Assembly (NCBI GenBank): GCA_041661305.1
Contig: JBAZUR010000001.1
Location: 167,077 to 231,076 of the forward strand
DNA: 64,000 nt
Direction of reading: 5' to 3'
DNA from: Minisyncoccota bacterium
Lineage (GTDB): Bacteria > Patescibacteriota > Minisyncoccia > Phycocordibacterales > VMEP01
The notes beneath the pieces were generated by a model. It had not been told where the DNA came from, did no database searches, and saw only the letters and a program-made list of their open reading frames with translations. Below are positions 9,119 through 50,581 of this stretch, in pieces. Made by a program: the position numbers and the translations under genes. Position 1 is the stretch's first letter; the number at the start of each line of letters is the position of its first letter.

Positions 9119-9583
9119 TTATTTCTTTTTTAGTTCTTCTATTTCGCGGACGATAGTCATGAGTTGATTCTCTATGTTTGTGAGTAGTTTTTTATCTTCG
9201 CGGTCTTTTTTCTCTTCCTCTGTTTCATCTTCTTGAATATCCTCAACATCCTCCTGAATGTCTTCAACGTCTTCTTGAATTTCCTCAACATCCTCCTGGA
9301 TTTCTTCAATGTCCTCGGAAATTTCTTCGATGTCTTTTTCAACTGCATGTAGTTGGGCAGTGGTGCGGTTTATCGTCAGTTGAATGAAAATTGATAGGTA
9401 TATAGCCTCAAGAGAAACTATTGTTGTTAGAATGAGCATTATCTTATCAAGAGCTACTCCAAAAATAGCTAGCACAAAAATTCCAACAAAAAATAAGGTA
9501 TGAACAACAAGCGATGGGACCGAGCCGATTCCACCGGTAATTTTCATCGAATATTTTTCTAATAGATGTCTGAACCTTTTCAT
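9119..9583 (-). CDS. Membrane protein with a C-terminal acidic tandem-repeat tail (EDIEEIQEDVEEIQEDVEDIQEDVEDIQEDETEEE).
   Basis: N-terminal TM helices. Repeated (E/D)I(Q/E)EDVE units. Confidence 0.55.
   Translation of the reverse strand: MKRFRHLLEKYSMKITGGIGSVPSLVVHTLFFVGIFVLAIFGVALDKIMLILTTIVSLEAIYLSIFIQLTINRTTAQLHAVEKDIEEISEDIEEIQEDVEEIQEDVEDIQEDVEDIQEDETEEEKKDREDKKLLTNIENQLMTIVREIEELKKK
9200..9345. repeat. Degenerate tandem DNA repeats of about 15-18 bp encoding the acidic heptad-like repeats.
   Basis: Repeated units ...tcctcaacatcctcctgaatgtcttcaacgtcttcttgaat... visible in the DNA. Confidence 0.5.
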
Positions 9584-9676
9584 CGGCGCATTATACTCAT
9601 CAAAACGAAAAGTACAAAAAGCTATGCTTTACAAGGGTGTTTGCGAACATTATGATGAGAGCTACAAGTCAAACTT

Positions 9677-12502
9677 ATGGAACAATACGACCACAAGAAA
9701 ATAGAAAAGAAATGGCAAAAAATTTGGGAGGAAGAAAATACTTTTGCGACTAGCGATGATTTAAGTAAACCAAAATCGTATGTTCTTGATATGTTTCCAT
9801 ATCCATCTGGTGAAGGCTTGCACACCGGACACGTTAAGGTTTATACAGCAAGCGATGTTTACGCACGCTATAAACGCTTAAACGGTTTTCGTGTACTTCA
9901 CCCAACGGGATGGGATGCTTTTGGTTTGCCGGCGGAACGGTTTGCGATAAAAAATAAAGTTCACCCTCGAGTTTCTGTTGATAATAATGTCGCGAATTTT
10001 AAGCGACAAATGAAGGCTATCGGCCTTTCGTATGATTGGGATAGGGAAATAGACACCACTGATCCAAAATTTTATAAATGGACACAATGGATGTTTCTTA
10101 AAATGTATGAAAAAGGTTTGGCTTACGAAGCTTATCAGCCGATAGTTTGGTGTCCAACATGCCAGACTGGTTTATCCAACGAAGACTTGGAGGGTAACGC
10201 TTGTGAAATTTGCGGGACTGTTGCGGAAAAGAAGCCAATGCGACAATGGGTTCTTAAAATCACGGAATACGCAGATCGCCTTGTTGACGATTTAGAGATT
10301 TTGAAAGATTGGCCAGAATCATTTAAAGAGGCTGAAAGAAATTGGATAGGAAGAAGCGAAGGATCGGAGATAGATTTTAAAATAGATGGTGTAGATAAAA
10401 AATTTACTATTTTCACAACGCGGGCAGATACGCTTTTCGGAGCAACATATGTTGTTTTGTCGCCTGAACATAAATTAATTTCTGAGCTTAGGCCCAATAT
10501 CAAAAATTGGGATGAAGTTGCTCAATATCAAGAAATAACGAGTAAGAAGACAGAAATAGAGCGAACATCTCTAGGGAAAGAAAAAACCGGCGTAAAACTA
10601 GATGGTGTTTGGGCTATTAACCCTGCAAATGAAGAAAAGTTGCCAATATTTATAGCCGACTACGTACTCGCTCATTATGGGACGGGAGCAATTATGGCTG
10701 TGCCTGCGCACGATGAGCGTGATTTTGATTTTGCAAAGAAATTTAACTTACCTATTAGAACTGTGATTGAGCCAGTTACGGGAGAGGTTCAACAAAACGA
10801 AGAGAAAAGAGAAAGTATAGTTGCGCTTGTGAGAGATCCTAAGAATGGGAAAATTTTGTCTCTTAATTGGGGAGAGAAATACGGGGGTCAATTGTTTGTT
10901 GGCGGAGGTATAGAGGAAGGGGAAGACATAGAGAGTGCTGCCATTAGGGAGACAAAAGAAGAAACTGGATATAGTGAAGTTCGTTTAATCGGCACTTCGG
11001 AGGTAATTCACCATCATTATTTTGCACACTCGAAAGGGGTGGCAAGGAATATCGATGCGATTGGTTTGTATTTTGAGCTTGTTGGAAATAAACAAGAAGC
11101 TTTGTCTCATGATGAATCAGAGAAAGGTAAATTTAAAGTTGAATGGATAACTGAGTCAGAAGCAGAGAAAAACGTGACGGACGCACTACATAGATATGTA
11201 TTTCAAAAATTTATACAAAACAAAGTATATACAGGAAGTGGAATTCTAACCGAGTCAAAAGATTTTAGCGGTATAGATAGTGAGGAAGCAAAAATAAAAA
11301 TTACAGAATTTGTCGGTGGAAAAATAAAAACGACCTATAAGCTCCGCGATTGGGTTTTTTCTCGCCAGCGATATTGGGGTGAGCCAATTCCAATAATCCA
11401 CTGTGAAAAATGCGGGGTTGTTCCGGTGCCAGAAAAAGACTTACCGGTAGTTTTACCAGATGTTAAGTCATATGAACCAACAGGTACGGGCGAGTCTCCA
11501 CTCGCGGAGATTTCAGAATGGGTAAATACAGAATGTCCTAAATGTGGCGGTGCTGGAAAAAGGGAAACAAACACGATGCCACAGTGGGCTGGGTCATCTT
11601 GGTATTACTTGCGTTTTATTGATCCAAATAATAATGAAGCTTTTGTTGACGCAAAAAGCGAAAAAGAGTGGATGCCAGTTGATTTGTATGTTGGTGGAGC
11701 GGAGCACGCAACGAGACATCTTATATACGCACGGTTTTGGCATAAATTTTTATATGATTTAGGAATGGTGTCGAGCAAAGAACCATTCATGCGTCTTGAG
11801 GGTGTTGGTCTTATTTTGGCTGGTGGTGGCGTAAAAATGTCCAAACGTTTGGGAAATATTGTTAACCCAGACGAAATAGTTGAATTATATGGAGCCGATA
11901 CTCTTAGAATTTATGAAATGTTTATGGGTCCTTTTGGACAAGCTAGTATCTGGGAGACTAAATCAATAATTGGTCCAAGAAGATTTTTGGAACGAGTATG
12001 GAAACTACAAGAAAAAATTTCAGACGTTAAAGAAAGCGATAAGACAGAAGTTGTCATTAATCAAACAATAAAAAAAGTTGGAGAAGACATTGAGGGTTTT
12101 AAGTTTAATACAGCAATAAGCCAGATGATGATTTTAACAAGTGCCCTTGAGGCGGAAGAGTACATTTCCCGCAAATCATTTGAGTCATTAGTTTTACTCT
12201 TGGCTCCATTTGCGCCACATTTTTCTGAGGAGTTGTGGGCTATTTTGGGCAACGAAAATTCAATCAATAAAAGTTCTTGGCCAGTATACGAAGAGTCTAA
12301 ATTAGTTGGTGGTACTGTCGTGGTTGCGGTACAAGTAAACGGGAAATTGCGGGATACGCTCTCGTTTAATAACGATGTCTCCGAAGAAGGTGTTGCAAAA
12401 GAAGTTATGGACTCTCCTCGTGTAAAAACATGGATTTCGGATAAAAAAATAAAGAAGACAATTTACATAAAAGGCCGTTTGTTTAGTATTGTTACAGAGT
12501 AA
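9677..12502 (+). CDS. leuS: Leucyl-tRNA synthetase with an embedded NUDIX hydrolase domain (about aa 368-550).
   Basis: Class-I HIGH region (PYPSGEGLHTGHVKVY). TTRADT editing-domain motif. AVPAHDERDFDFA. KMSKRLGN. The internal stretch GGGIEEGEDIESAAIRETKEETGY is a canonical Nudix box (Gx5Ex7REUxEExGU). Confidence 0.9.
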   Translation: MEQYDHKKIEKKWQKIWEEENTFATSDDLSKPKSYVLDMFPYPSGEGLHTGHVKVYTASDVYARYKRLNGFRVLHPTGWDAFGLPAERFAIKNKVHPRVSVDNNVANFKRQMKAIGLSYDWDREIDTTDPKFYKWTQWMFLKMYEKGLAYEAYQPIVWCPTCQTGLSNEDLEGNACEICGTVAEKKPMRQWVLKITEYADRLVDDLEILKDWPESFKEAERNWIGRSEGSEIDFKIDGVDKKFTIFTTRADTLFGATYVVLSPEHKLISELRPNIKNWDEVAQYQEITSKKTEIERTSLGKEKTGVKLDGVWAINPANEEKLPIFIADYVLAHYGTGAIMAVPAHDERDFDFAKKFNLPIRTVIEPVTGEVQQNEEKRESIVALVRDPKNGKILSLNWGEKYGGQLFVGGGIEEGEDIESAAIRETKEETGYSEVRLIGTSEVIHHHYFAHSKGVARNIDAIGLYFELVGNKQEALSHDESEKGKFKVEWITESEAEKNVTDALHRYVFQKFIQNKVYTGSGILTESKDFSGIDSEEAKIKITEFVGGKIKTTYKLRDWVFSRQRYWGEPIPIIHCEKCGVVPVPEKDLPVVLPDVKSYEPTGTGESPLAEISEWVNTECPKCGGAGKRETNTMPQWAGSSWYYLRFIDPNNNEAFVDAKSEKEWMPVDLYVGGAEHATRHLIYARFWHKFLYDLGMVSSKEPFMRLEGVGLILAGGGVKMSKRLGNIVNPDEIVELYGADTLRIYEMFMGPFGQASIWETKSIIGPRRFLERVWKLQEKISDVKESDKTEVVINQTIKKVGEDIEGFKFNTAISQMMILTSALEAEEYISRKSFESLVLLLAPFAPHFSEELWAILGNENSINKSSWPVYEESKLVGGTVVVAVQVNGKLRDTLSFNNDVSEEGVAKEVMDSPRVKTWISDKKIKKTIYIKGRLFSIVTE

Positions 12503-41139: not shown

Positions 41140-42038
41140 TGAAATATATTGACAATTCAACTTATAAATATAACAAAACGTACCCAATAGTTAAGTTGTC
41201 GGATATTTATTTAGATCAAAAAGATGAAGGGGTGTTGTTAGAAAAAATTAAAGATTCCCCCTGGTATATATACAGTTCAGATTTGATTAAAAAAAATTCA
41301 TTCCTAAAATTAAAACAAATAATATCGTTAACCAAAGACGTTGAGTTAATAGTAAAAACATATTATCCCAATATTAATATCAAGCACCTTTCTATTGGTG
41401 GATCTTATCTTTTCAAAAACGGAGAGTCCAATGATATTGACTTTAACGTAATAGTTGAGGGTAGCTTTTTTGATTATATGGATGTTTTTGAGTTTGATGA
41501 AATTAATAAAAAATTATTTTCCAAAGTCAAAAAAATATCCTTTATGATTTTTGGCGAGGATGATTTATTGTTTGACACTAATATTGATGACACCATTGAA
41601 ACCACTAATTATATCCATACCTCGCTTTGTATGAGAGAGGGGGTTGTTTTCTCGATTAGAAATATCCTTGTGCATGGGTTCGATATATGTAAAAAAGAAA
41701 TTGACACACATAATTTGATAATAAGAATTAAAAGACAGTTGTATCATGCTCGACTCTTGGTTGACGGTAAGGTTAATATACATACAACACAAGAAGAAAG
41801 ATTAGCAAAAGCAGTTAGTCGTATATGTGAAGCAGCTTTTTACCTATCATTAGTATTTCCAGAATTAAAAATTGACCCCGAATCAGTTTTTGAAAGAGAA
41901 ACGACATTGATTACAGAAGGCAACGCAACTGGCGCTTATAGCTGGCTTAAAGAGGTTGAATTTATAGCAGATAATATTGTTGTGAAAGTTTTAAATAATG
42001 GTTATCATGACTCCGTAAGCCCCTATCGTCTAACGTAG
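41139..42038 (+). CDS. Pol-beta-superfamily nucleotidyltransferase domain protein (about 300 aa; MNT/AbiEii/CCA-like GS...DxD core).
   Basis: LSIGGSYLFKNGESNDIDFNVIV matches the hG[GS]-x(9-13)-DhDh NTase motif. Start ATG overlaps the gltX stop (TAATG). Confidence 0.5.
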   Translation: MKYIDNSTYKYNKTYPIVKLSDIYLDQKDEGVLLEKIKDSPWYIYSSDLIKKNSFLKLKQIISLTKDVELIVKTYYPNINIKHLSIGGSYLFKNGESNDIDFNVIVEGSFFDYMDVFEFDEINKKLFSKVKKISFMIFGEDDLLFDTNIDDTIETTNYIHTSLCMREGVVFSIRNILVHGFDICKKEIDTHNLIIRIKRQLYHARLLVDGKVNIHTTQEERLAKAVSRICEAAFYLSLVFPELKIDPESVFERETTLITEGNATGAYSWLKEVEFIADNIVVKVLNNGYHDSVSPYRLT

Positions 42039-42088
42039 GACGTCATCTAATTGAGATGAAAATTTAGGTTCGATACCTAGTAGGGGTT
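42019..42088 (+). ncRNA. tRNA-like cloverleaf candidate (non-canonical anticodon loop) overlapping the 3' end of the NTase gene.
   Basis: Acceptor GCCCCTA/TAGGGGT (7 bp incl. G:U). D-stem GTC/GAC. Anticodon stem TCATC/GATGA with loop TAATTGA (no U33). T-arm TTAGG-TTCGATA-CCTAG (near-consensus T-loop). Not validated by any tool. Confidence 0.2.
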
Positions 42089-42098
42089 CTAGAAAAAA

Positions 42099-43369: not shown

Positions 43370-44059
43370 ATGAAGCACCAAGATAATTTACTGCTTGAAA
43401 CTGCTTACCACGTAATAAGAATAATTCTCTCCCCTTTAGTTAAGTTGTTTTGGATTAAACAAGTGGTCGGCCTTGAGAATATACCGCAAAAAGGTGCTGT
43501 AATATTTGCTTTTAACCACCAAAGTTACTTTGATTTTATTTGTTTTATTGCTGTGTGCCCTCGCCATGTTCATTATCTTTCAGCAGAAAAATTTTTCACC
43601 AACTCTTTTTGGAACCCAATCATGAAAATAATGGGACAAATTAGAGTTGAAAGAACAAGTAAAGATAAAAGAGCGCTACATAATTTAATTCAAAAACATT
43701 TGGAAAACGGTAAAATTATTGGGATTTTTCCAGAGGGGACAAGGTCCCCACACCCCGAGAAAATGCTTGAAGCCTATAGTGGAGTAGCTCGATATTCATA
43801 TCACGGCAATGTTCCCGTTATCCCTGTAGGGATTAAGGGAGCATATGAGGTAATGTCTCGTTTTGACAAAAAACCAAAAGTTAGAAAAAGTATCGAAATT
43901 ATTATCGATAAACCAATTGACTTGTCGCCGTATCATCACAGTAAATTAAACCGAAAAGCTTTTAAGGTGATAACAAATAAAATAATGGTAAGAATTGCAG
44001 AACTTTCAGGAAAAGCTTATCCATATAAAATTTATCCTCCATGGCCACAGAAAATCTAG
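43370..44059 (+). CDS. 1-acyl-sn-glycerol-3-phosphate acyltransferase-like (PlsC family), copy 2.
   Basis: VIFAFNHQSYFDFI (HX4D-type block), IFPEGTRSP. Confidence 0.75.
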   Translation: MKHQDNLLLETAYHVIRIILSPLVKLFWIKQVVGLENIPQKGAVIFAFNHQSYFDFICFIAVCPRHVHYLSAEKFFTNSFWNPIMKIMGQIRVERTSKDKRALHNLIQKHLENGKIIGIFPEGTRSPHPEKMLEAYSGVARYSYHGNVPVIPVGIKGAYEVMSRFDKKPKVRKSIEIIIDKPIDLSPYHHSKLNRKAFKVITNKIMVRIAELSGKAYPYKIYPPWPQKI

Positions 44060-44706
44060 CAATTTTTGATATTGACGGAACGCTAATTCGTGGGCAAAGC
44101 CAGAAGTCTTTGCTTATGTTTCTTTACAGCGGGGGTTATATTTCACATTGGTATTATTTCAAAATAATGATTTGGTTCATCTTATATCAACTGCACTTCA
44201 TCGATAGTCCAAAAAAAGTAATGGAGTACGCTTTTTCTGTTTTTAAGAATACTCGAGAAGATAGAGCAAAAGAAATTATTGATGAATATTTTGAATTACA
44301 TTTAAAATATAAATTTTATAATGATGGCTTGAAGCTTATTGAGCAACTAAAGGGAGAGGGGTACAGAATTATATTGATATCAAATGCTATTAATTTGATT
44401 GTAGAGAGGATTGAAAAATACCTCAAAGCTGATGATTCAATTGGAACAATACTCGAGGTAGTTGACGGGCGACTTACTGGAAAGATTGATGGTTCAATCG
44501 TATATGGTTTAGAAAAAAAGAGGGTACTTGAAGAATATTCACGCAAAAACGACATAAAATTAAGCAATGCTTCTGCCTACGGAGACCATATTTCAGATAT
44601 CTCTATGTTAGAATTGGTAGGTCACCCATTTGTTGTTAACCCATCAAATAGGCTAAGTAGTATTGCAATCAAAAAGGGGTGGCCAATATTGATTTTTAAA
44701 AACTGA
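44041..44706 (+). CDS. HAD-superfamily hydrolase, subfamily IB (phosphoserine-phosphatase-like).
   Basis: Motif I IFDIDGTL. Capped HAD-IB architecture. Motif III/IV (GDHISD). Confidence 0.7.
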   Translation: MATENLAIFDIDGTLIRGQSQKSLLMFLYSGGYISHWYYFKIMIWFILYQLHFIDSPKKVMEYAFSVFKNTREDRAKEIIDEYFELHLKYKFYNDGLKLIEQLKGEGYRIILISNAINLIVERIEKYLKADDSIGTILEVVDGRLTGKIDGSIVYGLEKKRVLEEYSRKNDIKLSNASAYGDHISDISMLELVGHPFVVNPSNRLSSIAIKKGWPILIFKN

Positions 44707-44707
44707 A

Positions 44708-46297
44708 ATGAACCTTTTTTACATATCAAGTATTCTTATTTTTTTCGCCAGCTTAGCATTTGGGCTATTTGTTTATGTTAATAACACAAGAGCAAGGTTA
44801 AATAGCTCGTGGTTTTTATTTTCGTCCCTAATTGCTTTTTGGGGGTTTTCTCTTTATGGGGTGACTTCAGCAAAAGATATTGAGACCGCAATGTTATGGC
44901 AATATGCACTTGATGTAATTGCGATTTTCATTCCCGTTCTCTATGTAAATTTTATTTTAAGTTTTCTTGGAATAAAAAATAAAGTAGTCATCTATACAAC
45001 CTTTATTATAGGGTTATTATTGGCAATTTTAAGTACCACAGAATTTTTTAAGGTTGGAATAATAGATCGGTTTGGTTTTTATTGGATAAATCCCGGGCCT
45101 TACTACTTACTCTTTCCAGCGTTCTTTATTCTTTGTGTTATATACGCTTTGTTTCTTCTTTTTCAGGCATACACAAATGACAAAAATAATAAGCGTTTAC
45201 GTGCACAAATACGACTTCAGATAATTGCTGGTGTGATTGGTTTTAGTGGTGGAATTACGAATTTTTTACCACAATTTTTCAACATTTTTCCGTTCGGTAA
45301 TTATTTTGTTCTACTTTATATTTTTTTCATTAGTTATTCTATTATTAAATATAAATTTTTTGATCTCAAAACAGCTGCAACTGAATTATTCGCGGGCGGT
45401 GTTGTTATCTTATTTTTCTTTAATTTGCTTACGTCTGTCACCATTCAAGATTGGCTTATTAGGGCATTACTATTAGCTCTCGTGTCATTCTTTAGTGTTC
45501 TTATTGTGCGCGGTGTTTCAAAAGAAGTTAGGGCGCGCGAACAAATTGAGTTGTTGGCCAACGATTTAAAAATCGCGAATGAGCGTCTGCAATTTTTGGA
45601 CAAACAAAAATCGGAATTCGTTTCCATCGCCTCGCATCAACTAAGAAGCCCACTCACGGCCATTAAAGGATATACATCAATGGTTCTTGAAGGTTCGTTT
45701 GGTTTTATTGAGCCAAAAACAAGAGAGGCTGTTGATAGAATTTTTCAATCAGCGCAAAATCTTGTGGGAATTGTTGACGATCTTCTTAATATAACTCGTC
45801 TTGAGCAAGGGAGAATGGAATACTCTTTTGAAAAAGTTGATTTATCAGCACTGACAAAAGAAATTGTTGATTCACTTTACCCGAATGCATTAAATAAAAA
45901 ATTAGGCTTAACTTTTGAAAACGACAAAGCTACGGATTATTTTGTTAATGCTGACTTACTTAAAATTCGACAGGTCGTACTCAATTTGGTTGATAATGCA
46001 ATTAAATATACGCGCGAGGGAGCAGTTAAGGTAAATGTTTCTAAAATTAATAATGGAAAAGGAGTGCGCGTTGCTGTTGCCGACACCGGTGTTGGAATTA
46101 CCCCCGAGCTCCGTTCACGTCTTTTTGAAAAATTTAGTCGTGGCGATGAGGTTAGCAAGTTGCACACAAATGGCACAGGTCTTGGTTTGTATATCGCCAA
46201 GCAAATGATTGAGGCCCACAAAGGGACTATTGGTGTTAATTCTGACGGAGAGGGTAAGGGCTCAACATTCTATATAGAAATACCTACGCTTAATTAA
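44708..46297 (+). CDS. Sensor histidine kinase with N-terminal multi-TM sensor domain. Orphan, as no response regulator is adjacent.
   Basis: About 7 TM helices. HisKA H-box (VSIASHQLRSPLTAIKGY). HATPase_c N/G boxes (LVDNAIKYT, DTGVGI, GTGLGL). Confidence 0.8.
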   Translation: MNLFYISSILIFFASLAFGLFVYVNNTRARLNSSWFLFSSLIAFWGFSLYGVTSAKDIETAMLWQYALDVIAIFIPVLYVNFILSFLGIKNKVVIYTTFIIGLLLAILSTTEFFKVGIIDRFGFYWINPGPYYLLFPAFFILCVIYALFLLFQAYTNDKNNKRLRAQIRLQIIAGVIGFSGGITNFLPQFFNIFPFGNYFVLLYIFFISYSIIKYKFFDLKTAATELFAGGVVILFFFNLLTSVTIQDWLIRALLLALVSFFSVLIVRGVSKEVRAREQIELLANDLKIANERLQFLDKQKSEFVSIASHQLRSPLTAIKGYTSMVLEGSFGFIEPKTREAVDRIFQSAQNLVGIVDDLLNITRLEQGRMEYSFEKVDLSALTKEIVDSLYPNALNKKLGLTFENDKATDYFVNADLLKIRQVVLNLVDNAIKYTREGAVKVNVSKINNGKGVRVAVADTGVGITPELRSRLFEKFSRGDEVSKLHTNGTGLGLYIAKQMIEAHKGTIGVNSDGEGKGSTFYIEIPTLN

Positions 46298-46387
46298 TTT
46301 TTTTGATATAGACCAGTATTAATATACATGCTACTATCTTTATGATTAGTCAATCCTGACTGATGCTATTTTTTATGGAGGTGTAAT

Positions 46388-46588
46388 ATGGGTTGGTTTG
46401 GCTGGGGTTCTGATGGAAAGGGCGGGGATGTGAATGTGAAAGTCACACACACCCCTACAACAACCAAAACAGAGGTGTTGAAATCCTCTGACGGTGATCG
46501 TAGCAACCACTCTCACCAGGGTATCACACACAACGTTTTTACAGGCAAAACATCCAGTTTTCACGCTGACCCGAAAAAGAGCCGCTGA
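46388..46588 (+). CDS. Small Gly/Ser/Asp-rich 'MGW' protein, paralog A (66 aa).
   Basis: GGAGG RBS 6 nt upstream. Homologous to the 49242..49445 ORF (MGWFGWGSD...TEVLKSSDGD.SNHSHQGITH vs MGWGNWFSD...YEVLRDTGGSKSDHQHII). Confidence 0.55.
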   Translation: MGWFGWGSDGKGGDVNVKVTHTPTTTKTEVLKSSDGDRSNHSHQGITHNVFTGKTSSFHADPKKSR

Positions 46589-46607
46589 GATTTGCCTGCC
46601 TTCACTT

Positions 46608-46635
46608 AAAGCGTTTTTGTTTTCAAGAACGCTTT
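46608..46635. terminator. Hairpin AAAGCGTT-loop-AACGCTTT followed by a T-run between convergent genes.
   Basis: Read directly. 8-bp stem, 12-nt loop, TTTTTTT. Confidence 0.45.
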
Positions 46636-46642
46636 TTTTATT

Positions 46643-46978
46643 TCATATTTCAATAGTACGGAGTTTTTTCGCGATATCTTCAGTTGAAGAGAACTCTTTT
46701 GGTATTACGTTATCTACCTCTTCTGCGTACAACATTATGTCTGTTGCAATACTACTCAAATCTTCGTCGATGTTGTCTAGTAACGATATTGCTAGATAAT
46801 AAATTTTTGCCTGCTCTGTTTTTGGGATAAGCTTTAACCCGCTTTTCAAGAGTTTCATTACTTCGTCTCTGTTCTTTCCATCTGTAGAGGATATTTTTTT
46901 AAAAAAACCTTGATCCTTAAAGCCGTACTGGTTTATGTATTTTTGTGATTCGATATTTTTCCCAACATTATATTCCAT
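46643..46978 (-). CDS. Hypothetical protein.
   Basis: 111-aa ORF. No motif. Confidence 0.4.
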   Translation of the reverse strand: MEYNVGKNIESQKYINQYGFKDQGFFKKISSTDGKNRDEVMKLLKSGLKLIPKTEQAKIYYLAISLLDNIDEDLSSIATDIMLYAEEVDNVIPKEFSSTEDIAKKLRTIEI

Positions 46979-47100
46979 ATTTTAATTATATCCTGAATTG
47001 CAAAATTCTACGAGCGCGCCGTGGAACCCTCCATTAAATGTAAAAAACACTACGTAGGGCGTCGAAAAAGTCTGGGGTTTTTTATGATACGATAAGCACT

Positions 47101-47637
47101 ATGAATTATTTGGCCACATTACACGATAAAGATATTTTTCCTCAACCAATTAACAAGATCCCTGATTATTATGAAAAAAGGGTAACGGTTAAAGCTATTG
47201 CAAAAAACAAAAAAGGGCAATTTGCTTTTGTCACTAACCCGATTCATAAATTTTGTCTTTTGGCAGGAGGTGGTGTAGAAAACACTAATCTTGAAGCTGA
47301 AATTAAAAGGGAGTGTCTTGAAGAGCTCCGTTATGAAGTTGATGTTGTGGATATTGTTGGTAAAATACACGAGTTTCGTAATAGAGACGCTAAGGAATAT
47401 GAAACTACTTGTTTTTTAGTAGAAACAAAAAATGAAATAAACGAAGATCTCAGGACAGACGATGAAAAGAAAAACGATCTTTTTGTTGTATGGCTTGATG
47501 GCGAGGAGGCTAAGAAAATTTTAGAAGAACAAATTGTGAAGGTTAAGAATGGCGAGATGGTTTTTTATAATACTGCATTTAACGCAGTAAGAGATAAAAT
47601 TTTCTTTGAGGCAATTTACGGTAAGGAGGGTGTTTAG
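47101..47637 (+). CDS. NUDIX-fold protein with a degenerate Nudix box.
   Basis: KRVTVKAIAKNKKGQFAFV beta-strand context. LAGGGVENTNLEAEIKRECLEELRYE approximates REUxEE but the upstream Glu spacing is off. Confidence 0.45.
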   Translation: MNYLATLHDKDIFPQPINKIPDYYEKRVTVKAIAKNKKGQFAFVTNPIHKFCLLAGGGVENTNLEAEIKRECLEELRYEVDVVDIVGKIHEFRNRDAKEYETTCFLVETKNEINEDLRTDDEKKNDLFVVWLDGEEAKKILEEQIVKVKNGEMVFYNTAFNAVRDKIFFEAIYGKEGV

Positions 47638-47652
47638 ATAAAAAAATCAGGT

Positions 47653-47967
47653 ATGAAAAAAATAGTTGATGATTTCAATAATGATATAAAAATAGTGATT
47701 GGTTTTATTCAAGCCGATAAGATAGAAGACGCTCGCAGTTTTTTTAATAATGATATTGTTAAAAAATATGAAAAAGAAATTAGAGACAAAAAAAGCCCGA
47801 TAGTTTTTTTCGAGATATTTTTTACAGAAATAGATGATTATCTTAATAATGATGTTGCGAAAATTCTAGGAGTTATTAAGAAAGATGATATTGTGAGGAG
47901 TTTTTATGGCGATTATGTGGAAGATTTAAAATTGGCTATAAACAAAGAGCAGGGTCAAAATACGTAA
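47653..47967 (+). CDS. Hypothetical protein.
   Basis: 104 aa, AT-rich. No motif. Confidence 0.4.
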   Translation: MKKIVDDFNNDIKIVIGFIQADKIEDARSFFNNDIVKKYEKEIRDKKSPIVFFEIFFTEIDDYLNNDVAKILGVIKKDDIVRSFYGDYVEDLKLAINKEQGQNT

Positions 47968-47971
47968 ATAT

Positions 47972-48484
47972 ATGGACAAGATTTATAAAATTGAATACGT
48001 TGATGCATCTTATACTTATGAAAAAAAGATAGCACAAACAAAATTGGATTCATGTGAAGCGTATGGATATGTAGAAAAAAATGGAAGCAATATAATTATT
48101 AGTTTTATAAAAAAAATGGGGGTAGTCGGTAGTTTGGTGGCAAATAAGGAAAAAATTATCGAGGGATTAGTCATTCCAGATACAGCTTTAATCTCTAGGG
48201 TTAAATCATACAAAACAGATATTTTGAATGATATGAAAGTTGGACTATCGATTTCTGTGACATGGCGCGACGTAATTCACGTTGCTAATTTACCGATATA
48301 TGAATGTCCAACTATGTATACAGAAGGAATTTTGTTTGAAATTAAAAAAGATTACGTTATTTTAAAAGACCCAAAAACAATGCGTATACAACCAAAGCCT
48401 CTTAAAAATCACCCTAGTAGTGGATTGCCAACTTATTTAGTGATTCCGATATCTTTTATTTCTAGTATTGAGGTTTTTAAATAA
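47972..48484 (+). CDS. Hypothetical protein.
   Basis: 170 aa. Shares a short YEC-containing motif with the next ORF. Confidence 0.4.
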   Translation: MDKIYKIEYVDASYTYEKKIAQTKLDSCEAYGYVEKNGSNIIISFIKKMGVVGSLVANKEKIIEGLVIPDTALISRVKSYKTDILNDMKVGLSISVTWRDVIHVANLPIYECPTMYTEGILFEIKKDYVILKDPKTMRIQPKPLKNHPSSGLPTYLVIPISFISSIEVFK

Positions 48485-48488
48485 AAAT

Positions 48489-48725
48489 ATGAAAAAATTA
48501 CCCACCAAAAATGATGACGGAAATCCTCTCGTGAATGTTGTTGTGAGGGTCAGTGACGGTAATGTATACGAATGTGTGGGGGTTTTAATGGAGGAAAATG
48601 GGGACTCAATCGAAGTGGCTTTTAACGCTGTAAATAAAAAAGTTATGGACTCTTTGGTTTTTAAAAAAACCGACATACTTAGTATTAATATTCTAGATCC
48701 GCTAACTATAGAAGAGCTCACTTAA
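48489..48725 (+). CDS. Hypothetical small protein. Start placed at the internal ATG (MKKLPTK) after the upstream stop.
   Basis: 78 aa. No motif. Confidence 0.35.
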   Translation: MKKLPTKNDDGNPLVNVVVRVSDGNVYECVGVLMEENGDSIEVAFNAVNKKVMDSLVFKKTDILSINILDPLTIEELT

Positions 48726-48820
48726 TTTGTTCTACATTAAAGCTCGAAAAAACAAAAGCTTTAGTATTCAAAAAAAGAGGTAAAAAGTATGTCCAGATAT
48801 CTCTTGTCATCACTTATTTT

Positions 48821-49216
48821 TTGAGTCATAATAAAAAAATGTTAAACCATCAAAACGGGGTAAATATTGAGGAAATATTTGAGGAAGATTTGCGATCAGA
48901 AATAACAATACTTCTTCAGAATAATCAAAATGAACACATTGTGTTTTTAAAAAATACTCTTAAAAAGAATTTAAATATCAGTAAGCAGTTACGAGTATTA
49001 GTAGAATATGGTCTTACTCACGTAAAAGACAAGGGGGCTGACTTTGCACTTGCTAATTATTTTTTTATTCTCTCGGGTATAAAAAATATCCATAGCGACA
49101 CGCGTAGTTTTTTTACCGACATGATGATTTTTTGTGAAGAAGATGAATATACTGCACTTAAAAATATTTCCGAAATAAAAAATTATTACAATAAAAAAAT
49201 ACTCCCGCTCTTATAA
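48821..49216 (+). CDS. Hypothetical protein.
   Basis: 131 aa. No motif. Confidence 0.4.
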   Translation: MSHNKKMLNHQNGVNIEEIFEEDLRSEITILLQNNQNEHIVFLKNTLKKNLNISKQLRVLVEYGLTHVKDKGADFALANYFFILSGIKNIHSDTRSFFTDMMIFCEEDEYTALKNISEIKNYYNKKILPLL

Positions 49217-49241
49217 AAAGAATTGGAGTATTTGGGGGGAT

Positions 49242-49445
49242 TTATCGTTTCGACTTGTTTGGGAGAGCGTGCGCTCGTTCTGCGCGTCCGTCGGAACTCC
49301 TCTCCACGATAATGTGTTGATGGTCGCTTTTACTTCCACCCGTGTCGCGCAAAACCTCGTATGTTGTTCCGCCGTCGCTTCTTGATTCCGTTTTTTCACT
49401 AACAGAATCCCCATTACTATCACTGAACCAATTACCCCAGCCCAT
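49242..49445 (-). CDS. Small Gly/Ser/Asp-rich 'MGW' protein, paralog B (67 aa). Convergent with the preceding block.
   Basis: GAGGAG RBS. Homologous to 46388..46588. A G7 tract at about 49234-49240 lies just past its stop. Confidence 0.55.
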   Translation of the reverse strand: MGWGNWFSDSNGDSVSEKTESRSDGGTTYEVLRDTGGSKSDHQHIIVERSSDGRAERAHALPNKSKR

Positions 49446-49603
49446 AGCGTTCTCCTCATAAAGACGAAAGGAAACCTCTCTTCTGACTCATTTAAATTCG
49501 CCATTAATATACAGTCTCGCGCACTTTACTGTTCAGTCAACGCCACCAAGGTTACTACATCAAAAGCTTTTAAAATAGGCCGTATTTTGCTATTATTTTA
49601 GCT

Positions 49604-50581
49604 ATGTCTGACCAAAAAATAATGCTTTCCGGGGTTAAACCGACAGGGGAGCCACATATTGGTAACTATTTTGGCGCTATGCGCCAGTTTGTCGCGCTTC
49701 AAGAAAGCTACAAAGGTTTTGTTTTTGTAGCTAATTATCACGCCCTAACCAACAATCCAACAAAAGAAGAACTTCTCGCCAACTCAAAAAACGTTGTTGC
49801 TACTTATCTTGCCATAGGACTTGATCCAAAAAAGACTACACTGTTCCTTCAGTCCGACATGCCGGAGGTCGCGGAGCTGATGGTTATTTTTAATAATCTG
49901 ATAACTGTGCCGTATCTTTCCAGAGCACACGCATACAAAGATGCCACCGCAAAAGGCAACGAAGCCAACGTTGGTGTTTTTGAGTATCCAGTGCTTATGG
50001 CGGCAGATATACTACTTTACGGAGCAGACGTTGTTCCTGTTGGTCAGGACCAAAAACAACATTTAGAAATTGCTCGCGATATCGCGGAGAAATTCAATCG
50101 CATTTACGGCGAGACATTCAAACTTCCCGAAGCATATATTTTAGAAGATGTTAAAACTGTGGTTGGAACCGATGGCAGGAAGATGAGTAAAAGCTACGGC
50201 AACACCATTCCTCTTTTTGCTGAATATGATGAGATAAAAAAAGCAGTGATGTCTATTCCAACCGACTCAAAAGGTGTTGAGGACGGAAAGGACCCAGAAA
50301 CTTGTAATGTGTTTGCTCTACATAAACTTTTTGCTGGGGACGAACTTCCTGCGCTTGAGAAACGCTATCGAGAAGGCGGTATTGGTTACAAAGAATCTAA
50401 AGAGATTTTAGTTGAAAGTATTGAAAAATTTATTGCACCGCTTCGAGAAAAACGCAAAGCTATTTTGGAAAACGATTCAGTTATTTTAGAGACTCTTAAA
50501 TCTGGACGTGAGACTGCACAAAAAATAGTAAAAGATAAAATGAATGAAGTCAGAGAGAAGGTTGGTTTAATAACTACATAA
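49604..50581 (+). CDS. trpS: Tryptophanyl-tRNA synthetase.
   Basis: GVKPTGEPHIGNYFGA (HIGH). KMSKSYGN. Confidence 0.9.
   Translation: MSDQKIMLSGVKPTGEPHIGNYFGAMRQFVALQESYKGFVFVANYHALTNNPTKEELLANSKNVVATYLAIGLDPKKTTLFLQSDMPEVAELMVIFNNLITVPYLSRAHAYKDATAKGNEANVGVFEYPVLMAADILLYGADVVPVGQDQKQHLEIARDIAEKFNRIYGETFKLPEAYILEDVKTVVGTDGRKMSKSYGNTIPLFAEYDEIKKAVMSIPTDSKGVEDGKDPETCNVFALHKLFAGDELPALEKRYREGGIGYKESKEILVESIEKFIAPLREKRKAILENDSVILETLKSGRETAQKIVKDKMNEVREKVGLITT

Follow-up and report, generated by a model that had tools for sequence, protein, structure and literature searches.

Type II toxin-antitoxin systems such as MazEF are compact pairs of cognate genes in which a small constrained protein is matched with a faster-evolving acidic partner; they persist in islands, duplicate into diverged cognate pairs, and are transferred horizontally. 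Effector-immunity pairs of polymorphic toxin systems also duplicate and diverge, and orphan immunity genes spread on mobile elements. Protein-protein pairs of the toxin-antitoxin or immunity kind are usually co-transcribed, and a convergent layout is atypical (PMC4773802). We analyzed a stretch of 64,000 nucleotides from a Minisyncoccota bacterium (hereafter, the window) and observed two genes for small proteins, MGW-A and MGW-B, each lying tail-to-tail with a gene for an acidic partner protein, pA and pB, respectively. The genetic architecture is very probably that of a two-gene module present twice, its copies having diverged and lying as mirror images of each other. With type II toxin-antitoxin systems the locus shares the make-up of the pair, the persistence in islands, the duplication, and the horizontal transfer; however, MGW and partner genes are adjacent but convergent in 12 of 12 pairs and are separated by a hairpin rather than joined in one operon. 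Neither protein is related in sequence or fold to known toxin or antitoxin families, and the partner has no DNA-binding domain, whether RHH, HTH, AbrB, or Phd-type. Furthermore, MGW occurs as a viable orphan, and its toxicity is hypothetical. As in polymorphic toxin systems, the pairs have duplicated and diverged and MGW spreads as an orphan on mobile elements; unlike in those systems, we found no secretion, trafficking, or toxin domain in either protein, no linkage to T6SS, T7SS, or CDI, and a convergent arrangement.

MGW-A (66 amino acids [aa]; 46388-46588, plus strand) and MGW-B (67 aa; 49242-49445, minus strand) belong to a real family of small proteins, in which they are true paralogs. 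The homology that an earlier note had proposed for the two ORFs held: BLASTP aligned them over their full length with 24 of 67 identities (36%, E=1e-9), and one family profile recovered both (E=2e-22 for MGW-A and E=1e-31 for MGW-B). We found the motifs it had listed in both proteins (MGW..W.SD, (T/Y)EVL(K/R), H.H, and a basic C-terminus), together with strong ribosome-binding sites, read in the sequence as GGAGG upstream of MGW-A (46377-46381, plus strand) and GAGGAG upstream of MGW-B (49452-49457, minus strand; CTCCTC on the plus strand). A GGAGG-type site lies at the same distance in all MGW orthologs. MGW-A is a divergent A-type member with orthologs at 95%, 68%, and 67% identity, and MGW-B is a typical B-type member with 11 close homologs at 66-100% identity; the family as a whole amounts to 43 clusters at 50% identity among 1.84 billion representatives. 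Between orthologs, dN/dS was 0.06-0.13 (0.10 for MGW-A versus lineage L017 and 0.06 for MGW-B versus lineage L010), and strong purifying selection extends across phyla. Between MGW-A and MGW-B, dS was saturated, so the A/B duplication is ancient. Structure prediction, one of the checks suggested earlier, gave a single four-stranded antiparallel beta-sheet as the predicted MGW fold, and the AlphaFold2 (AF2) model was confident over the full length (pLDDT 92; 91.7 for MGW-B). The low dN/dS, the consensus ribosome-binding sites, and the confident AF2 model indicate that the MGW genes are real. They are also GC-richer than their surroundings, as had been noted (about 0.49-0.50 versus 0.27-0.38 nearby). 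MGW genes have a GC content of 0.40-0.56 in genomes of 0.36-0.57, and the level tracks the family across genomes, so its cause is amino-acid composition rather than foreign origin.

Across 46 family members, W6, H42, and H44 are invariant and W3, K18, and G53 nearly so, and the alignment contains no conserved Cys. Conservation is uniform along the protein, and nearly the whole surface is conserved, even across phyla. The proteins are extremely hydrophilic (GRAVY -1.0 to -1.6), with a composition rich in Thr, Ser, Asp, Glu, and Lys.

The partner proteins are 100-150 aa long, acidic (pI 4.2-5.8), and all-helical, and they share the motif YGL...YFFILS.I..I....RDFFTD.M..CE. In the window they are pA (111 aa; 46643-46978, minus strand) and pB (125 aa; 48839-49216, plus strand; AF2 pLDDT 87.9, pTM 0.85, 6-7 helices). 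An hhalign comparison of the pA and pB families gave E=4.2e-5 (probability 70%, 65 columns), and BLASTP matched pA to members of the pB family at E=1e-5 and 3e-5; judged by these sequence comparisons, pA and pB are distant paralogs. The window thus holds two mirror-image copies of the module, and it is the mirror orientation that places the small genes outermost. The partner HMM was built from 12 sequences with pA among them, so the pA score of E=1e-29 is no independent test; the partner in L017, outside the building set, scored E=5e-18. This L017 protein is an ortholog of pA (56% identical) and its gene is convergent to an A-type MGW gene. Homologs of pB, at 34-69% identity, are convergent to MGW genes in L005, L009, L010, L015/19, L018, L021, L027, L029, and L038. 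The two outermost genes of the bracketed block, which the earlier note had passed over as enclosed hypotheticals, are the conserved convergent partners of the adjacent MGW genes.

We then compared the arrangement across lineages. The MGW and partner genes are 15-56 nt apart and convergent in all 12 CPR-type lineages with enough flank (window A, window B, L005-8/31, L009, L010-14, L015/19/20, L017, L018/30, L021/28, L027, L029, and L038/39). A hairpin lies in the gap in 11 of these 12 pairs and often overlaps the partner's last codons. Between MGW-A and pA, a terminator scan detected a 12-bp hairpin followed by a T-run, a shared terminator (46608-46635; -15.8 kcal/mol, z=-3.2). Between pB and MGW-B, inverted repeat I12 forms a hairpin over the pB stop codon (49197-49233; -14.2 kcal/mol in context), and hairpins of this type, built from the partner's last codons, are also present in L010, L015, L027, L029, and L038. 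Pairing follows type: A-type MGW goes with a pA-type partner in the window and in L017, and B-type with pB-type. Across pairwise comparisons, MGW identity and partner identity are correlated (r=0.80), with MGW at 65-85% among typical B-type pairs and 45-56% to the outlying L038, and partners at 22-65%. All other neighbors of the module vary between lineages. The MGW gene and its partner form a conserved, co-inherited unit, and the six-gene block between the two MGW genes is lineage-specific. The link that the earlier note had sought between the MGW paralogs and the genes inside the bracket is real for the adjacent partners, to which the paralogs are functionally linked. Each MGW gene has its own promoter region and consensus ribosome-binding site, and the partner gene lies on the opposite strand.

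Outside CPR-type genomes, MGW is also present in peat bacteria that encode TonB, where it has no partner, and the proteins of the two groups are ~75% identical. Solitary MGW genes neighbor integrase, HipA, resolvase, and Type ISP genes. A unit of ~292 bp, comprising a -10-like box, a Shine-Dalgarno sequence, the ORF, and a short hairpin, recurs at 96.6% identity in two contexts that are otherwise unrelated; it is the sole DNA common to both islands. We considered an integron cassette, which would have a promoterless ORF followed by an attC site and an integron integrase in the vicinity; the shared downstream DNA was only 34 bp, shorter than typical attC sites, and the unit has a -10-like box of its own. 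This self-contained promoter-ORF-terminator-like unit recalls the 'morons' of phages and islands; however, MGW was not found in IMG/VR, INPHARED, or PLSDB, and we rejected a phage or plasmid origin. Because MGW is present there without its partner, it has a partner-independent role, and it is probably not an unconditionally lethal toxin.

Our best explanation as a whole, that of a duplicated module encoding a cognate binding pair, is a tentative one that we hold to be somewhat short of probable. Its mechanistic part, a binding pair with an antagonist, is possible but on the doubtful side. MGW and partner products would form a cognate binding pair, with MGW as the effector under constraint; the partner, which evolves faster and is specific to each lineage, would serve as an antagonist, regulator, or chaperone. 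The A and B pairs would be cognate and insulated from each other, and the module would work as accessory modules of the toxin-antitoxin or effector-immunity kind do, differing from them in its convergent transcription with overlapping 3' ends. The conservation of the MGW surface suggests binding of a universally conserved cellular component, or of a metal through the HxH. Convergent transcription counts against a toxin-antitoxin or immunity pair, because such pairs are usually co-transcribed. The occurrence of MGW without the partner, the missing resemblance of both proteins to known toxin, antitoxin, immunity, or defence families, and the partner's lack of a DNA-binding domain also count against the proposed mechanism. 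The duplication may be immunity-like, as the earlier note had suggested. In its boldest form, the proposal is an undescribed class of addiction- or defence-type modules whose two proteins each have a new fold and whose regulation works via convergent transcription with overlapping 3' ends. MGW would bind a universally conserved cellular target and be countered by the CPR-specific partner as cognate antagonist, the two copies in the genome would be insulated paralogous pairs, and the effector gene would be a self-contained unit of ~290 bp exchanged between CPR episymbionts and diderm bacteria. We regard that full form as unlikely.

Genomes of CPR/Patescibacteria are tiny, and for roughly half of the genes in them no function is known. 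MGW has been kept with its partner through heavy local turnover, duplicated under streamlining, and shared with TonB-encoding bacteria, which makes it unlikely to be neutral. An antagonistic module, whether toxin-antitoxin- or immunity-like, would be an addition to the known families, new in its folds and unusual in its convergent layout, and would serve as a marker for accessory islands and for gene flow between CPR organisms and other bacteria.

The main alternative is that MGW acts alone as a non-toxic housekeeping or stress protein that binds metal (through HxH) or nucleic acid, with the partner a CPR-specific regulator, chaperone, or coupled protein and the duplication yielding two isoforms. 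We consider this a real, if less than even, possibility. The solitary occurrence of MGW in other bacteria fits it, as do the extreme hydrophilicity, the invariant Trp and His-x-His, the strong ribosome-binding site, and the purifying selection across phyla. The predicted sheet also weakly resembles the nucleic-acid-binding sheets of WRKY and Pur-alpha type (Foldseek TM 0.44-0.51, E about 1), a match that is not significant; against 6j4f (WRKY/GCM1-type), E was 0.9 and TM 0.48-0.51. Like the WRKY/GCM1 domain and the PUR repeat, MGW is a four-stranded antiparallel sheet of ~60 aa, and its HxH recalls the zinc ligands of WRKY. However, MGW has no Cys ligands and no WRKYGQK motif, its HxH lies on another strand, and no sequence similarity was detected. 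We rejected MGW as a WRKY/GCM1-type zinc domain, which would call for C-C-H-H (or C-C-H-C) zinc ligands and a WRKYGQK-like DNA-contact strand: the family has no conserved Cys. Further against a stand-alone role, the family is rare and patchy, its contexts are hypervariable or mobile rather than core operons, and family searches detected no known stress-protein signature. As a stand-alone metal or nucleic-acid binder, MGW would still be a compact four-stranded sheet with no significant Foldseek match in PDB or BFVD.

A role for MGW as a graspetide-type RiPP precursor or scaffold, cross-linked by an ATP-grasp maturase with the N-terminal MGWxxWF as leader recognition motif, is improbable. Graspetide (omega-ester) clusters with MvdC/MvdD-type ATP-grasp enzymes encode small products rich in Thr, Ser, Asp, Glu, and Lys, as MGW is, and the aromatic N-terminus of MGW is conserved. 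Homologous ATP-grasp RiPP-maturase genes lie ~1.1 kb from the module in L010 and L009 (TIGR04187 E=7e-66 and 3e-55, respectively), and the L009 maturase has no obvious small precursor ORF beside it. However, the L010 maturase has its own adjacent 64-aa candidate precursor outside the MGW family, 10 of the 12 lineages have no ATP-grasp gene near the module (L009 and L010-14 being the two that do), and tblastn with both relatives' maturases detected none in the 64-kb window. The invariant residues are W, W, H, and H rather than a Thr/Ser-Asp/Glu core, and the uniformly conserved protein is confidently predicted to fold over its full length, where a leader and a disordered core would be expected of a precursor. 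The precursor-peptide idea in the earlier note is weakened by three of these observations: the confident full-length fold, the invariant Trp and His, and the absence of a maturase from the window.

It is more improbable still that MGW and partner are functionally unrelated and adjacent only through inherited synteny or hitch-hiking. The loci that have a partner all belong to a single broad group of CPR/Paceibacteria-like contigs, and the interaction of the two proteins is itself a proposal, both of which leave some room for it. Yet the two genes stay together even where identity has fallen to 45-55% for MGW (L038) and 22-35% for the partner and all other neighbors have been replaced, and the ancient A/B duplication kept both genes in the same geometry. 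Moreover, the DNA block conserved between L005 and L018 (positions 7887-8619) is just the pair plus ~110 bp upstream, with strain-level gene turnover on both sides.

The last alternative, that the paralogs are protein-coding terminal inverted repeats of a mobile six-gene cassette, agrees with their inverted placement at either end of a block that the closest relative lacks, but we judge it almost certainly wrong and refuted by the absence of DNA-level repeats: similarity is confined to the protein level (36%) and stops at the ORF ends when end A is aligned with the reverse complement of end B, a repeat search for flanking direct or inverted repeats gave only short AT-rich chance matches, no target duplications were found at the block ends, no recombinase, transposase, or integrase family was matched by any of the eight genes between 46388 and 49445, MGW genes elsewhere are single, and the A-B duplication is ancient. 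The 'bracketed cassette' of the earlier note is thus retired, and a defined two-gene unit stands in its place. The block, described there as five genes, encloses six, and the 'G7 tract' after MGW-B is a G6 at 49234-49239 that is not conserved in relatives. Between the two modules lie a NUDIX hydrolase gene (178 aa; 47101-47637, plus strand; Pfam NUDIX E=1.8e-6) and three unannotated genes (104, 170, and 78 aa; 47653-48725, plus strand) in an operon with it (gaps of 4-15 nt in the ORF list). These four intervening cargo genes accompany the pair only in near-identical strains. The 104-, 170-, and 78-aa proteins had zero matches in family searches, and of the three just the 170-aa one turns up again close to another MGW module (in L029; 32% identity, E=4e-20). 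Family members occurring singly in unrelated contexts had been named beforehand as evidence against a cassette, and this is largely what we observed; the claimed linkage survives for the enclosed outermost genes (46643-46978 and 48839-49216), which are conserved with MGW, and not for the block as a unit.

The closest relative, L010 (MGW-B 85% identical), has one MGW gene, in a B module, and at the corresponding site a different insert, a graspetide cassette. Beside pB, L010 retains 66 nt that duplicate the HisK 3' end, the mark of an insertion where the window has module A and the NUDIX gene. HisK - pB - MGW-B - trpS is the most likely order of the ancestral locus, into which a second module and a NUDIX operon were inserted in the window's lineage and a graspetide cassette in a sister lineage. 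The module persists in hypervariable, mobile-element-rich islands: MazEF adjoins it in L018, and an rve-domain integrase gene (IS-like) adjoins it in L006. 

Searches of Pfam, NCBIfam, PHROGs, and PADLOC with MGW and partner proteins gave no accepted match and no known toxin, antitoxin, immunity, or defence family. Two weak hits were judged spurious, a Tox-PAAR-like match of MGW-A (E=0.11) and Pfam PF14157 YmzC-like (1 of 46 members at E=1e-3, with the window proteins unmatched). The MGW family profile matched no PDB chain at E<=10, and a partner match to IL-15 in the PDB profile search (E=0.01) was rejected. Foldseek gave nothing below E=0.07 for MGW in PDB and BFVD and nothing below E=3.5 for the partner in PDB. 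The literature on graspetides in CPR and on convergent protein toxin-antitoxin pairs yielded nothing specific. Several candidate members were also excluded: the large proteins P0047 and P0055 are adhesins with Ig-like repeats whose match is confined to a local 'H.F.VV..D..G' hairpin, and neither the L010 64-aa ORF nor an 'MGWF' ORF in L029 belongs to the family. A by-eye look in the window for an operator shared upstream of the four module genes showed only short, unconvincing motifs. Rfam gave nothing above threshold over 45800-50000; a sub-threshold mmgR match corresponded to the terminator hairpin. In L027, duplicated ORFs upstream of the module read, by sequence inspection only, as Y1/IS200-like transposases.

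The feature at this locus is a new, uncharacterized two-gene module, present twice, whose function we infer. Both of its families are new, its convergent layout is unusual, and its distribution crosses phyla. Each copy pairs a small MGW gene with a partner: MGW-A (46388..46588, + strand, 66 aa) lies tail-to-tail with pA (46643..46978, 111 aa), and directly downstream of MGW-B (49242..49445, − strand, 67 aa), on the other strand, lies pB (48839..49216, 125 aa). The earlier note had positioned both MGW ORFs correctly, and both are real genes. Their products are homologous end to end (36% identity, E = 1e-9, BLASTP), each has the strong ribosome-binding site attributed to it, a GGAGG-type sequence 6-7 nt 5′ of the ATG, and both genes are indeed GC-richer than their surroundings (~0.5 versus 0.27-0.38). 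MGW orthologs have 0.40-0.56 GC despite genomes spanning 0.36 to 0.57 GC; because orthologs keep similar GC across genomes, we attribute this content to a composition rich in Gly, Asp, Ser, Arg, and His rather than to a foreign origin. A G tract does follow MGW-B, but it is a G6 (49234-49239), not a G7, and it is not common to relatives.

Word-indexed searches returned 11 close homologs of MGW-B (66-100% identity) and three of MGW-A (67-95%), all of 66-69 aa and without annotation; one source labels the organism Candidatus Paceibacterota, under which the window protein carries the locus tag WC724_01320. Searching 1.84 billion cluster representatives with a profile (E ≤ 1e-3) defined a family of 43 clusters, nearly all of them stand-alone proteins of 54-99 aa, in which W6, H42, and H44 are invariant and W3, K18, and G53 near-invariant. 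The dN/dS among orthologs was 0.06-0.13, with dS saturating. AlphaFold2, given a 46-sequence alignment, modeled MGW confidently from residue 1 onward (pLDDT 91.7, pTM 0.73), with four predicted β strands at residues 14-21, 27-33, 43-49, and 55-61.

Homologs of pB (34-69% identical) occupied the same tail-to-tail position beside MGW on related contigs (L005-8/L031, L009, L010-14, L015/19/20, L018/30, L021/28, L027, L029, and L038/39), and all neighbors other than the pair itself differed between loci. On contig L017, an MGW-A-like gene (68% identical) faces a pA homolog (56% identical). pA matched the L010 and L005 partners (E = 1e-5 and 3e-5, BLASTP), and hhalign of two small alignments of the pA and pB families gave E = 4.2e-5 and a probability of 70% over 65 columns, with YGL / YFFILS / TD.M..(C/A)EE in register; these alignments make pA a distant paralog of pB. 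Scanning every locus with profiles recovered MGW together with a partner in 12/12 distinct CPR-type lineages having enough flank. The gaps between the two genes measured 15-56 nt and held a strong hairpin in 11/12 pairs, often made from the partner's final codons (...ILPLL*), so the MGW transcript must run into the 3′ end of the partner. The partners are acidic (pI 4.2-5.8) and predicted to be all-helical (pLDDT 87.9, pTM 0.85). The module is conserved, convergent, duplicated, and found in accessory regions. The window holds two mirror-image copies around four central genes, MGW-A> <pA, NUDIX-104-170-78, pB> <MGW-B, and the enclosed block contains six genes, not five.

Of the earlier interpretation, the paralogy and the link of the MGW genes to enclosed genes stand, the latter through pA and pB as conserved convergent partners; the ideas of a cassette, of terminal repeats, and of precursors fail. 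When end A was compared with the reverse complement of end B, DNA similarity was confined to the coding regions, and a search of 46000-49800 for flanking repeats yielded only short AT-rich chance matches, which together refute the MGW paralogs as terminal repeats. No recombinase was found in or beside the block. Nor do the paralogs bracket a cassette: the closest distinct relative (L010-L014; MGW-B 85% identical) lacks MGW-A, pA, and all four central genes. The window arrangement is shared by L001-L004 and L023, which are near-identical strains (~94% DNA identity where they align).

L010 (also L011-L014) has the same histidine kinase, but between it and pB carries a graspetide-type cassette at 1596..2820 with three genes, namely a 64-aa ORF with the terminus TTYRTDGGDSGSDEAH, a RiPP maturase of the ATP-grasp type (TIGR04187, E = 7e-66), and a gene of 168 aa. 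The 3′ end of the kinase is duplicated beside pB as a 66-nt copy (L010 949-1014), a remnant that marks an insertion. Because of these other genes and the kinase remnant, we consider HisK - pB - MGW-B - trpS the most likely ancestral locus; different cargo would then have entered one site, lineage by lineage. Against the otherwise near-identical strains L001/L003/L023, the window shows 99-100% identity in the NUDIX and 104-aa genes, falling to 85% and 83% in the adjacent 170-aa and 78-aa proteins (47972..48725). So abrupt a local change points to recombination or diversifying selection.

The MGW gene also exists and moves alone. A metagenome scan recovered peat contigs of 51-57% GC encoding MGW proteins 66-75% identical in amino acids to MGW-B, beside TonB-family and CarboxypepD_reg proteins, and we found no partner gene on these contigs. 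Because TonB implies a diderm host, they are probably not CPR. One identical MGW protein from peat, P0067, present in 46 blocks, occurs in two unrelated contexts, one beside a Y-family polymerase, DUF5677, and TonB and the other beside a phage-type integrase, DUF4365, HipA, Type ISP, and DUF6876. The only DNA common to both (L033 7953-8244 and L036 7953-8244) is ~292 bp at 96.6% identity: the MGW ORF, the 48 bp before it with a −10-like box and SD, and the 34 bp after it with a small hairpin. The same interval recurs at 83% identity in a third context (L032 543-839). As judged by eye only, the unit may have an imperfect terminal inverted repeat of 11-13 nt, TTCTCAGTAGAGG / CCTCACTGGAA. Searches of phage and plasmid collections did not recover MGW.

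Where the two genes occur together, MGW-A-like members accompany pA-type partners and MGW-B-like members pB-type partners. Among typical B-type pairs, MGW identity is 65-85% (45-56% against the outlying L038), whereas partner identity is only 22-65%; the pairwise identities of the two proteins correlate (r = 0.80, from mutually non-independent values). The pattern is that of a co-inherited cognate pair, with MGW the more constrained member. MGW, pA, and pB had no match in Pfam, NCBIfam, PHROGs, or PADLOC, sequence profile searches of the PDB with MGW and partner gave nothing credible, and fold searches found no match for either protein in the PDB, nor for MGW in BFVD.

We tentatively propose mutual binding of the two products, with MGW as an effector and the partner as its lineage-specific antagonist or regulator. 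The near-complete conservation of the MGW surface across phyla suggests that MGW would act on a universally conserved component or through a metal site at HxH. In such working the pair would resemble a toxin-antitoxin or effector-immunity system. However, it is not a type II toxin-antitoxin system by the features tested, since the genes are not co-transcribed and have neither a recognized toxin or antitoxin domain nor a DNA-binding domain. The existence of orphan MGW also argues against an unconditionally lethal toxin. The main rival, about as likely as the binding model, sees MGW as a non-toxic protein that works alone in stress, metal binding, or nucleic-acid binding, its partner serving as a dedicated regulator or chaperone. 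That MGW is a graspetide precursor, the substrate of an ATP-grasp maturase, is very improbable: such maturases lie ~1.1 kb from the module in L009 (a homolog at 9326..10315) and L010, but the window has none, the MGW invariants are W/W/H/H, the predicted fold is confident over the full length, and L010 has its own unrelated precursor candidate.

Genes around the module in CPR loci are also prone to turnover. MazEF is near it in L018 and an IS-like rve-domain integrase gene in L006, and unrelated inserts flank it on both sides when L005 is compared with L018. On the 100-kb contig L027, where the module has 57% GC, a near-identical ORF pair (2230..2904 and 3355..3960) sits ~1-3 kb upstream; from sequence inspection, not a domain search, we read these as Y1/IS200-like transposases (motif MPNHWHLVV). 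L005 has three copies of a 128-nt repeat at ~870 nt spacing (6923-7050, 7783-7910, and 8663-8790), upstream of a 94-aa ORF, MGW, and the partner. Each holds a 38-44 nt palindrome, TCTGCCAATTCTCGCGAyyGCGAAAATTGGCAGA, and the repeat, which has no equivalent in the window, may act as a shared operator or represent a MITE-like element.

Several gene families recur in shuffled order near the module in different CPR lineages (L029 672..1175 and 2247..3380, L018 3322..4556, and L039 2532..2771): homologs of the window 170-aa gene, a DUF397-like small protein, an α/β-hydrolase-like protein (136-141 aa; two tandem copies in L029), NUDIX, and HAD hydrolases. Upstream of the 170-aa homolog in L029, a small hydrophilic ORF (408..605, + strand) starts (MRE)MGWFTNF...; it has only the N-terminal MGW motif in common with the family (4.7 bits) and was rejected as a member. 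L009 encodes a HisKA_7TM-type kinase homologous to window 44708..46297. 5′ of the window kinase lie an acyltransferase and a HAD hydrolase (43370..44706), and at that site near-identical and related strains encode a methyltransferase, among other genes (L001 14759..16882, L010 4541..7657), which is further strain-level turnover around the locus. ARAGORN also placed a tRNA-Asn at 42019..42089 (+ strand), whose anticodon, ATT, is unusual.
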